A stretch of 64,000 nucleotides of DNA from NCBI GenBank assembly GCA_026417035.1, contig JAOAEA010000015.1:824-64823 (forward strand). Reading direction: 5' to 3'. This DNA is from Burkholderiales bacterium (GTDB lineage Bacteria > Pseudomonadota > Gammaproteobacteria > Burkholderiales > SG8-39). Positions 21,485 to 23,980 of this stretch are shown piece by piece; the stretch's first letter is position 1, and every line of letters starts with the position of its first letter. Position numbers and translations under genes: made by a program. The notes under the pieces are model-generated. The model was not told the origin of the DNA. It ran no database searches and was given only the letters and a program-made list of their open reading frames with translations.

Positions 21485-23980
21485 ATGACGGCGGGACTCT
21501 GGTTCGCGCTCGTGGCGGCGGTGCTGGCGATCCTGTACGGCGCGTATTCGATCGGCTGGATCGTGCGGCAGCCCGCGGGCAATCCGCGGATGCAGGAGAT
21601 CGCGGCGGCCATCCAGGCCGGCGCCCAGGCGTACCTGAACCGGCAGTACACGACGATCGGCATCGTCGGCGTGGTGCTGTTCATCGTGCTCGGCGTCGCG
21701 CTCGGCTGGACGACCGCCTGGGGCTTCGCGCTCGGCGCCATCCTCTCCGGCGCGGCGGGCTACATCGGCATGAACGTCTCGGTGCGCGCCAACGTCCGCA
21801 CCGCCGAGGCCGCGCGCAAGGGGCTGAACGAAGCGCTGGCGGTGGCCTTCCGCGGCGGCGCGATCACCGGCCTCCTCGTCGTGGGTCTGGGGCTGCTCGG
21901 TGTCGCCGGCTTCTATGCCATCCTGCTCACGGCGGGCGCGCACGGCACTGCGCAGGCGGACCTGCTCAAGCCGCTCGTCGGCCTGGGTTTCGGCGGTTCG
22001 CTCATCTCGATCTTCGCGCGGCTCGGCGGCGGCATCTTTACCAAGGGCGCGGACGTCGGCGCCGACCTCGTCGGCAAGGTCGAGGCGGGCATCCCCGAGG
22101 ACGACCCGCGCAACCCGGCGGTGATCGCGGACAACGTCGGCGACAACGTCGGCGACTGCGCGGGCATGGCCGCGGACCTGTTCGAGACCTATGCGGTCAC
22201 GATCATCGCGACCATGATCCTCGGCGCGCTGATGGTGAAGAGCACCTCGACGGCCGCGATCGTGTATCCGCTGGTGCTCGGCGGCTTCGCGATCGTCGCC
22301 TCGGTGATCGGCACCTGGTTCGTCAAGGCGCAGCCCGGCAAGAAGATCATGAGCGCGCTCTACCGCGGCCTGATCGTGGCGGGCGTGCTCGCGGCCATCG
22401 CCTTCATCCCGCTCACCTACTGGGTCATGGGGGATGTCGTGCGCGAGGTCCCGTTCGACGTGGCCGGCGGGCGCAAGTTCATCACCGTGTGGCACCTCTA
22501 CGGCGCGGCGATCGTGGGGCTGGTGCTGACGGCGCTGATGGTGGTGATCACCGAGTACTACACCGCCACCGAGTTCAAGCCGGTGCGGCACGTCGCCGCG
22601 GCGTCGCAGACCGGGCACGCGACCAACATCATCGCCGGCCTCGGCGTGTCGATGAAGTCCACGGCCTGGCCGGTGCTCGCGGTGTGCGCCGCGATCCTCG
22701 TGTCCTACCAGCTCGCCGGCCTGTACGGCATCGCCATCGCGGCGACCTCGATGCTCTCGATGGCGGGCATCATCGTCGCGCTCGACGCCTACGGCCCGAT
22801 CACCGACAACGCCGGCGGCATCGCCGAGATGTCCGAGCTGCCGAAGTCGGTGCGCGACATCACCGATCCGCTCGACGCGGTCGGCAACACCACCAAGGCG
22901 GTCACCAAGGGCTACGCCATCGGCTCCGCCGGCCTCGCGGCGCTGGTGCTCTTCGCCGACTACACGCACGCGCTCGAGGCGCAGGGCCAGATGCTCTCGT
23001 TCGACCTCTCCAACGAGCGCGTCATCGTCGGCCTCTTCATCGGCGGACTCATCCCCTACCTCTTCGGCGCGATGGCGATGGAGGCCGTCGGCCGCGCCGC
23101 CGGCGCCGTGGTCGTCGAGGTGCGGCGGCAGTTCAAGGAGATCGCCGGCATCATGGAGGGCAAGGCGAAGCCCGAGTACGGCACCGCCGTGGACATGCTC
23201 ACCCGGGCCGCGATCAAGGAGATGATCGTCCCGTCGCTCCTGCCGGTGCTGGTGCCGATCGTCGTCGGCCTCGTCCTCGGGCCGCAGGCGCTCGGCGGCG
23301 TGCTGATGGGCACGATCGTCACCGGCCTCTTCGTGGCGATCTCGATGTGCACCGGCGGCGGCGCGTGGGACAACGCCAAGAAGTACATCGAGGACGGCAA
23401 CTTCGGCGGCAAGGGGTCGGACACGCACAAGGCGGCGGTCACCGGCGACACCGTCGGCGACCCGTACAAGGACACGGCCGGCCCGGCGGTGAACCCGCTC
23501 ATCAAGATCATCAACATCGTCGCGCTCCTCATCGTGCCGCTGATGGCGACCGGCGGCGGCGAGAAGAAGGCGGAGGCGCCGGCGCCCGCGGTGCAGCAGG
23601 CCGCCGCTCCGGTTGCCGCGCCCGCACCGGCGCCCGCCGCGCCCGCGGCTGCGCCGGCCACGCCCGCGCCGATGGGCAAGATCTACTTCGAGATCGGCAA
23701 GGCCGCGATCCTGCCCGACGGCTCGAAGGTGATCGAGGTCATCGCCGGCCAGCTCAAGGCCGATCCGGCGGCGAAGGCGAACATCTCCGGCTACGCCGAC
23801 CGGAGCGGCAGCGCCGATCAGAACCTCGAGCTCGCGAAGCAGCGCGCGATGGCGGTGCGCGACGCGCTGAAGGCGGCCGGCGTCGCCGAAGAGCGGCTCG
23901 TGCTCGTCAAGCCCGAATTCGTGATCGCCGGCACCGCCGAGGCCGAGGCGCGGCGCGTCGAGGTGACGAAGGCGCCGTGA
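21485..23980 (+). CDS. hppA: membrane-bound H+-translocating pyrophosphatase with a C-terminal OmpA-like domain
   Basis: 831 aa. The first ~690 aa are canonical M-PPase ([72 protein letters not shown]). An Ala/Pro linker follows, then an OmpA_C-like ~100 aa ([29 protein letters not shown]...ARRVEV). Confidence 0.9.

Follow-up and report, generated by a model that had tools for sequence, protein, structure and literature searches.

Architecture of the hppA::ompA-like gene

We analysed a stretch of 64,000 nucleotides from a Burkholderiales bacterium (contig JAOAEA010000015.1 of assembly GCA_026417035.1; hereafter the window, in whose coordinates all positions are given). The subject is its hppA gene, whose single open reading frame (ORF) encodes a complete membrane-bound pyrophosphatase (M-PPase) that continues through an Ala/Pro-rich linker into a C-terminal OmpA-like domain. 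As set out below, this fusion is real, and its tail probably ties the pump to the cell wall. The gene and its parts are as follows.

21485..23980, + strand: hppA::ompA-like fusion gene, 831 codons plus stop (ORF list; Pfam H_PPase and OmpA; NCBIfam NF001951)
21485..23554, + strand: M-PPase core, residues 1-690 (PF03030, PDB matches, AlphaFold2 (AF2) model)
23555..23668, + strand: Ala/Pro-rich flexible linker, residues 691-728 (predicted local distance difference test (pLDDT) values of AF2; homologue comparison)
23669..23977, + strand: OmpA_C/Pal-like domain, residues 729-831 (PF00691, AF2 tail model, Foldseek)
22895..22897, + strand: codon of K471 (position 12.46), signature of K+-independent M-PPases (in a motif starting at residue 467; aligned to Vigna A537)
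23798..23800, + strand: codon of D772, predicted diaminopimelate-binding Asp (position in the motif SGYAD; invariance)
23843..23845, + strand: codon of R787, predicted diaminopimelate-binding Arg (within N780-x2-L-A-x2-R-A-x2-V-x3-L795)

A first-pass annotation made from the nucleotide sequence had described the product as a full M-PPase with a core ending at about residue 690, followed by an Ala/Pro linker and an OmpA_C-like domain, and had proposed a profile search as a check. In that search, both domains scored above threshold: Pfam H_PPase (PF03030) matched residues 13-683 over its entire length (profile positions 1-645 of 645, 917.5 bits), and OmpA (PF00691) matched residues 734-807; its score was 50.1 bits for the full-length protein and 54.3 bits (E 1.9e-14) when the tail encoded by 23555-23977 was searched alone, against a gathering score of 27.2. 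The NCBIfam models NF001951 and TIGR01104 were matched by the whole protein with 1180 and 897 bits (cut-offs 859 and 652, respectively). The alignment with the H+-PPase of Vigna radiata stopped at query residue 692, corresponding to chain residue 760 of 766, in agreement with the core boundary first described; since only six residues of that chain remain beyond this point, about 140 residues of the window protein are extra. The ORF is as first described, whereas the start given for the feature, 23557, lies 2 nt out of frame, residue 691 beginning at 23555.

Of the 43 residues from 691 to 733, 18 are Ala and 10 are Pro, and the hppA frame keeps a third-position GC content of 0.87-1.0 across the junction, the linker and the tail. 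AF2 modelling on an alignment of 58 fused homologues gave a confident all-helical core up to residue 688, with long helices consistent with 16 transmembrane helices (TMHs; the last is called TM16 below), then a disordered segment (residues 690-726, pLDDT <50) and a second confident domain at residues 729-829.

Conservation of the fused reading frame

Homologues were collected as the 120 best matches in a collection of 5.8 billion proteins, with clusters formed at 90% identity. Sixty-five of these 120 carried both Pfam domains in one chain of 794-869 aa, and their sources were separate assemblies of ENA, JGI and NCBI origin, with contigs of up to 685 kb; an orthologue survey had been suggested with the first-pass annotation, and this is its outcome. 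The nearest database relative of the window protein was 89% identical to it. At the two closest related loci, L081 (ENA) and L082 (JGI), the genes encode fused proteins of 840 and 847 aa, and the gene order lpxK-trm112-kdsB-adk-pfp-hppA::ompA-ggt, followed by miaA and mutL on the opposite strand, is common to the window and both loci. The linker is hypervariable in length and sequence (27-82 residues, median 45, 37% Ala and 17% Pro across the 65 fused homologues), and the differences in its length between the window and L081 or L082 are all in-frame insertions or deletions (multiples of 3). Compared with the nearest relatives, the core had a ratio of non-synonymous to synonymous substitution rates (dN/dS) of 0.09, and the OmpA-like part one of 0.08-0.22.

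These data bear directly on whether a missed stop codon or an indel has joined hppA to a separate downstream gene of the OmpA family. Such an artefact would be in keeping with the frameshifting 2-nt insertion found in the adjacent pfp gene. On the other hand, the ORF is continuous in 65 clusters at 90% identity from three sources, the genes of L081 and L082 also translate into fused proteins, the linker indels are multiples of 3, the tail is under purifying selection in the hppA frame, and the tail by itself lacks a start context, a signal peptide and a transmembrane segment. For the family as a whole the artefact is refuted, and the probability that we leave to it is negligible. The earlier claim that the reading frame is genuine thus stands: the fusion exists and is conserved among Burkholderiales. 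A separate OmpA gene starting at M729 was also considered and rejected: its product would lack a signal peptide and a transmembrane segment, no stop codon precedes this Met, and all relatives keep an unbroken frame.

Features of the pyrophosphatase core

The core was matched in the PDB by 4A01/5GPJ (E 1e-155), by the K+-insensitive H+ pump 8B37 (E 3.5e-150) and by 4AV3 (E 2e-143). Its hydrolytic-centre motifs are identical or nearly identical to those of the Vigna radiata enzyme and invariant in the 58 homologues. The residue at position 12.46 is Lys (K471, aligned to A537 in GNTTAAIGKG of Vigna), and the Glu in the motif DLFETY (E234) lies at position 6.53, one helical turn before the E6.57 of Vigna. 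A Lys at 12.46 is the mark of K+-independent enzymes, and 6.53 is the position of the Glu used by K+-independent H+-PPases (Li et al. 2016, PMC5150537). From K471 and E234, the window protein is therefore predicted to be a pyrophosphate (PPi)-driven proton pump of the K+-independent H+-PPase type. Several of its relatives, among them P0003, P0006, P0031 and P0071, bear public names such as 'sodium-translocating pyrophosphatase' or 'K(+)-stimulated pyrophosphate-energized sodium pump'. These names are generic and disagree with the signature residues at 12.46 and 6.53; the database names given to the fused proteins also ignore the OmpA domain.

The window protein has in common with canonical K+-independent H+-PPases (8B37 from Pyrobaculum aerophilum; the Rhodospirillum rubrum type) the full-length core, the hydrolytic motifs, K12.46 and E6.53, but the canonical enzymes end a few residues past TM16, whereas the window protein adds about 140 residues. 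To our knowledge, M-PPases are textbook single-polypeptide primary pumps without accessory domains.

Fold and conserved residues of the OmpA-like tail

When modelled alone with AF2, the tail gave a pLDDT of 91 and the order beta-alpha-beta-alpha-beta-alpha-beta. Foldseek returned 121 PDB matches for this model at E <= 0.001, of which the following are representative (TM denotes the template-modelling score and rmsd the root-mean-square deviation).

9uu2, OmpA-C-like domain: TM 0.89, rmsd 1.6 A
3td5, Acinetobacter baumannii OmpA-like domain with a pentapeptide containing diaminopimelate (DAP): TM 0.82
5u1h, Pseudomonas aeruginosa OprF-C: TM 0.81
2hqs, Escherichia coli Pal: TM 0.80
7bba, TagL of the type VI secretion system: TM 0.76 (TagL matches span 0.76-0.81)

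By sequence, the best PDB match of the tail was the C-terminal domain of Mycobacterium tuberculosis ArfA (E 6e-12), followed by OmpA-C, YiaD and Pal. The equivalog cut-offs of NCBIfam were missed by far (51 against 175 for YiaD, 42 against 125 for Pal and 40 against 277 for the OmpA porin). The tail belongs to the OmpA_C superfamily and not to the named Pal, YiaD or OmpA families. It is the sole copy of the module in the window.

The pair formed by D271 and R286 of A. baumannii OmpA (AbOmpA) binds diaminopimelate (PMC6572160), and the peptidoglycan-binding motif of the OmpA family has been given as NX2LSX2RAX2VX3L (PMC4916078). In 58 fused proteins, residues F735, G769, D772, G775, A784, R787, A788, G799, P810, R823, R824 and V825 of the tail are invariant, and D772 and R787 are also invariant in 22 diverse tails. 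These two residues are spaced by 15 residues, which is the spacing of D271 and R286 in AbOmpA. On the basis of motif position and fold match, D772 and R787 are predicted to correspond to the meso-diaminopimelate-binding pair D271/R286 of AbOmpA.

Pal, OmpA-C and OprF-C have in common with the tail the fold (TM 0.8-0.89, rmsd 1.6-2.9 A), the Asp/Arg pair and the motif in the form NX2L(S/A)X2RAX2VX3L, although their structures are just 25-36% identical to it in sequence. OmpA also has an Ala/Pro-rich hinge ahead of its C-terminal domain. However, a lipid or a beta-barrel holds Pal, OmpA and OprF in the outer membrane, whereas the anchor of the tail in the window protein is an inner-membrane ion pump with 16 TMHs. 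MotB/PomB, TagL, ArfA (Rv0899) and E. coli YiaD also have OmpA-like domains that lack an outer-membrane beta-barrel anchor. In MotB/PomB, TagL and ArfA, an anchor in the cytoplasmic membrane is followed by a periplasmic linker and then by an OmpA-like peptidoglycan-binding domain. By analogy, the tail probably works as in MotB, TagL and ArfA, tying a machine of the cytoplasmic membrane to the wall. The membrane part differs, being a single transmembrane helix in MotB/PomB, TagL and ArfA and a complete enzyme and pump in the window protein.

Membership of the MotB/PomB stators themselves was considered and rejected: the membrane part is a 16-TMH PPase with neither a MotA/PomA-type partner nor a conserved plug segment, and the likeness lies only in the principle of tethering. 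No MotB-family model was found among the best 25 of 33 NCBIfam matches. A gene of the MotA/ExbB family does occur in the window at 15985-16725 (+ strand), about 5 kb upstream, with lpxK, kdsB, adk and pfp in between; it is not linked to the fusion.

Recurrence of the module on other membrane proteins

An alignment of 22 tails was used to scan contigs for relatives of the tail, each GTDB species being represented by one genome, and the best 80 of 374 relatives were inspected. All of these 80 loci were betaproteobacterial and fusions to cytochrome c oxidase subunit II (COX2) were dominant; in the protein matches and the loci alike, every named carrier belonged to Burkholderiales or Betaproteobacteria. 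Across partners, the tail subfamily shows 45-60% identity and the same motifs. The partners were distributed as follows.

M-PPase: 9 of the best 80 loci, including a Casimicrobiaceae metagenome-assembled genome (MAG)
COX2 with a cytochrome c domain: about 47 of the best 80 loci, in Paraburkholderia, Burkholderia and Caballeronia (Pfam COX2_TM + COX2 + Cytochrome_CBB3 + OmpA)
PufC, the tetrahaem cytochrome of the photosynthetic reaction centre: about 15 of the best 80 loci, e.g. Hydrogenophaga luteola (Pfam CytoC_RC + OmpA)
CcoO-like protein: 1 of the best 80 loci, in a Zoogloea MAG (L053, 12-1001), module C-terminal, assigned by motif only
Amt ammonium transporter: 3 of the best 80 loci, Sphaerotilus-like, assigned by motif only, with the module N-terminal (signal peptide, module, linker)
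Small proteins with a transmembrane helix, linker and OmpA domain, and YidB-like proteins: several, from the scan of the best 80 and the search of representatives

In the COX2 fusions (L004 3633-5300, L007, L030 and L078), a linker of Ala, Gly and Pro and the tail stand at the periplasmic C-terminus. The PufC fusions were seen at L002 (ORF ending at 5306), L003, L016, L023 (Hydrogenophaga luteola) and about 11 more loci, and the Amt fusions at L024 770-2647, L043 4495-6579 and L045 4824-6701. Across all partners found, the terminus that carries the module is always the one known to face the periplasm. In a search of representatives at 50% identity, where the fused PPases collapse into a few clusters, these PPases appeared as only seven C-terminal fragments. 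The small bitopic proteins (P0138-P0142, L065 1201-1839 and L070 2086-2721) consist of a short cytoplasmic stub, one transmembrane helix, an Ala/Pro linker and the OmpA-like domain, and the YidB-like proteins (P0121, L050 and L063) carry one to three copies of the domain. The two kinds are the closest stand-alone relatives of the tail and plausible donors of the module.

In a neighbour-joining (NJ) tree of the PPase cores, the fused forms were basal and paraphyletic, and tail-less enzymes of 686-691 aa were nested among them, which suggests an old fusion with subsequent losses of the tail. In the tree of the OmpA-like domains, PPase tails were interleaved with those of PufC, COX2, Amt and the small proteins. 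Compared with the window protein, the core of P0005 is 90% identical but its tail, which is of another subtype, only 43%; for P0004 the identity is 89% in the core and 65% in the tail. The comparison suggests replacement or exchange of tails between partners. The NJ trees carry no support values and are read as indications only of tail loss and swapping.

Since the module recurs on other inner-membrane energy-converting proteins, the tail would be a generic, exchangeable anchor rather than a catalytic part of the PPase. We tentatively propose, at somewhat less than even odds, that it is an exchangeable periplasmic peptidoglycan-tether cassette, which has repeatedly been grafted onto the periplasmic termini of M-PPase, aa3-type oxidase subunit II, a cbb3 CcoO-like protein, PufC and Amt in Betaproteobacteria. 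If true, anchoring of bioenergetic machinery to the sacculus would be a strategy of the whole lineage.

The same distribution could be read from the side of the envelope, with the pump, an inner-membrane protein that would be abundant and stably inserted, serving as a mere membrane anchor for an extra strut between inner membrane and peptidoglycan, and the benefit lying in stiffness or in the spacing of the periplasm, in the manner of Pal, OmpA and Lpp but from the inner-membrane side. The presence of the module on unrelated COX2, PufC, CcoO-like and Amt proteins and on small proteins with a transmembrane helix, linker and OmpA domain would fit this, as would the apparent exchange of tails between partners and the tail-less PPases interspersed in the core tree. 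However, apart from the small bitopic and YidB-like proteins, the partners are all ion- or electron-transducing complexes, hinting at a benefit for the complexes themselves. We regard a service to the envelope as unlikely; it also overlaps with a tethering of the pump, as both need binding to peptidoglycan.

Topology of the tail and a proposed peptidoglycan tether

M-PPases are built of 16 TMHs, and their hydrolytic centre is cytoplasmic (PMC5150537). In the alignment with solved M-PPases, a loop of the hydrolytic centre directly precedes TM16; as this loop is cytoplasmic, TM16 should run from the cytoplasm to the periplasm and the extension should start outside. In the M-PPase crystal structures of 2012, both termini face the lumen or the periplasm; in the open-access literature searched, no text was found that states this outright. 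From the homology of TM16 we infer that its end, and hence the tail, is periplasmic. The tail lacks its own signal peptide, so that fusion to a helix that ends outward would be its only route to the periplasm. The earlier argument for a periplasmic tail that could bind peptidoglycan holds, given the predicted DAP-binding pair and its conservation, the Pal-like fold, the TM16 homology and the recurrence of the module at periplasmic termini only.

The mechanism that we propose would operate as follows. The pump would be a homodimeric, K+-independent, H+-translocating M-PPase with 16 transmembrane helices per protomer. At the periplasmic face, where TM16 would end, the chain would continue through some 40 residues of disordered Ala/Pro spacer, plausibly enough to reach the sacculus, and then form the Pal/OmpA_C-type domain of about 100 residues, in which the Asp/Arg pair would hold the meso-diaminopimelate of a peptidoglycan stem peptide. 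Each protomer would thus be bound non-covalently to the sacculus, with two tails per dimeric pump, and the pump would become a tether between inner membrane and cell wall whose lateral mobility is restricted. PPi hydrolysis and H+ pumping would proceed in the core as in untagged enzymes; catalysis is not expected to change because the cassette is generic.

We consider it likely that the tail is a non-covalent peptidoglycan tether of the pump; the binding to peptidoglycan and the resulting immobilisation are deduced from the conserved residues, the fold and the predicted topology. Several points weigh against this view. The AF2 model is uninformative on the position of the tail relative to the membrane, and the tail departs from the motif NX2LSX2RAX2VX3L by one Ser-to-Ala change. 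Tail-less PPases with 83-87% core identity exist, and because such close relatives lack it the tail must be dispensable for pumping. In P0093 (729 aa), a PPase of the fused type, a frameshifted linker truncates the tail. Finally, the base-level accuracy of the window is imperfect, with at least one frameshift in the neighbouring gene pfp.

A regulatory role could also be envisaged, in which docking of the tail to peptidoglycan or to another periplasmic ligand would pull on TM16 and thereby alter the release of protons, much as the plug and linker of MotB couple peptidoglycan binding to the opening of its channel; the OmpA-like domain of MotB-type proteins can gate the proton path. TM16 lines the ion gate and the exit channel and contains the gate residues K16.50 and D/N16.46 (PMC5150537), and the extension begins about 3 residues past TM16. 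On the other hand, a linker that is long (27-82 residues), disordered and hypervariable would transmit force or conformational change poorly, and TM16 is not followed by any conserved plug-like segment. A mechanism specific to the PPase is also disfavoured by the occurrence of the identical module on COX2, PufC and Amt. Such a regulatory function is therefore given little credence here, less than the envelope strut, and tethering of the pump remains the preferred explanation.

Relation to described M-PPases and significance

The first-pass annotation had implied that a PPase-OmpA fusion was new, which does not hold, since the architecture already appears in a 2024 review. By applying a length filter to UniProt, García-Contreras and colleagues (PeerJ 2024;12:e17496, PMC11210485) found an 810-aa K+-insensitive m-PPase of Paucibacter sp. 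KCTC 42545, noted in its AlphaFold model a C-terminal domain of 110 residues that HMMER identified as OmpA-like, and tabulated similar proteins. They stated that the role of the domain 'remains to be elucidated', called it 'extracellular', and, with a TM score of 0.05 against whole E. coli OmpA, called the likeness remote (PMC11210485). Here, the comparison with Pal and OmpA-C instead of whole OmpA gave TM scores of 0.8-0.89, and the predicted DAP-binding residues are retained.

The Paucibacter enzyme and the window protein are both K+-insensitive, come from Burkholderiales and carry an OmpA-like C-terminal domain of about 110 residues; the window protein thus belongs with the OmpA-tailed M-PPases of the Paucibacter type, from whose sequence its own differs, the two having been compared by description only. 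The window gene is a further member of the described architecture, to which the present analysis adds the fold assignment, the putative DAP-binding pair, the evidence of selection, the spread across Burkholderiales assemblies and the recurrence of the module on other proteins. For this recurrence (COX2-OmpA and PufC-OmpA fusions), no paper was found in the open-access texts searched, and a survey of OmpA-like proteins of Burkholderia cenocepacia included no COX2 or PufC fusion of such kind.

A wall-tied M-PPase would be a natural experiment on whether the positioning or immobilisation of a primary ion pump matters, and the fusion offers a simple route to confirm the C-terminal topology of M-PPases in vivo. 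It also argues that in the carrier bacteria the enzyme works in the cytoplasmic membrane and not in an internal organelle. The tether on oxidase, photosynthetic and ammonium-transport proteins would provide a ready comparative dataset, bearing on how inner-membrane complexes are organised with respect to the wall, a question usually approached only via MotB, Tol-Pal and secretion systems.

Neighbouring genes and elements

Two further features flank the fusion gene.

20063..21327, + strand: pfp, PPi-dependent phosphofructokinase (PFK)-type gene, frameshifted (Pfam PFK on 20362-21324; N-terminus in another frame)
23993..24029, + strand: GC-rich terminator-like hairpin followed by a U-rich stretch, 13 nt past the hppA stop (RNA fold)

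The genes adk, pfp and hppA stand head to tail at 19242-23980 (+ strand), an arrangement that is syntenic in L081 and L082. They form a cluster for PPi and adenylate energy metabolism, in which the PFK-family gene is probably PPi-dependent; linkage of pfp and hppA is known in methanotrophs. Compared with the intact 421-aa genes of L081 and L082, pfp of the window contains a 2-nt insertion (TG, 20264-20265), which leaves hppA unaffected and makes pfp either a real pseudogene or the site of a base-level assembly error. The only Rfam match in the window is a tRNA at 63655-63741 (+ strand), which is not linked to the fusion.

Just past the hppA stop, the hairpin at 23993-24029 is followed by UUUUCGUUU. 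Folding of the RNA of 23981-24045 gave -50.2 kcal/mol (z -5.56), and none of 200 shuffled sequences was as stable; a consensus terminator scan did not report the hairpin at 23993-24029. The hairpin overlaps the most upstream candidate start (GTG at 23992) of ggt, the gamma-glutamyltranspeptidase gene, from which it follows that the true ggt start probably lies further downstream or that the hairpin is read through.

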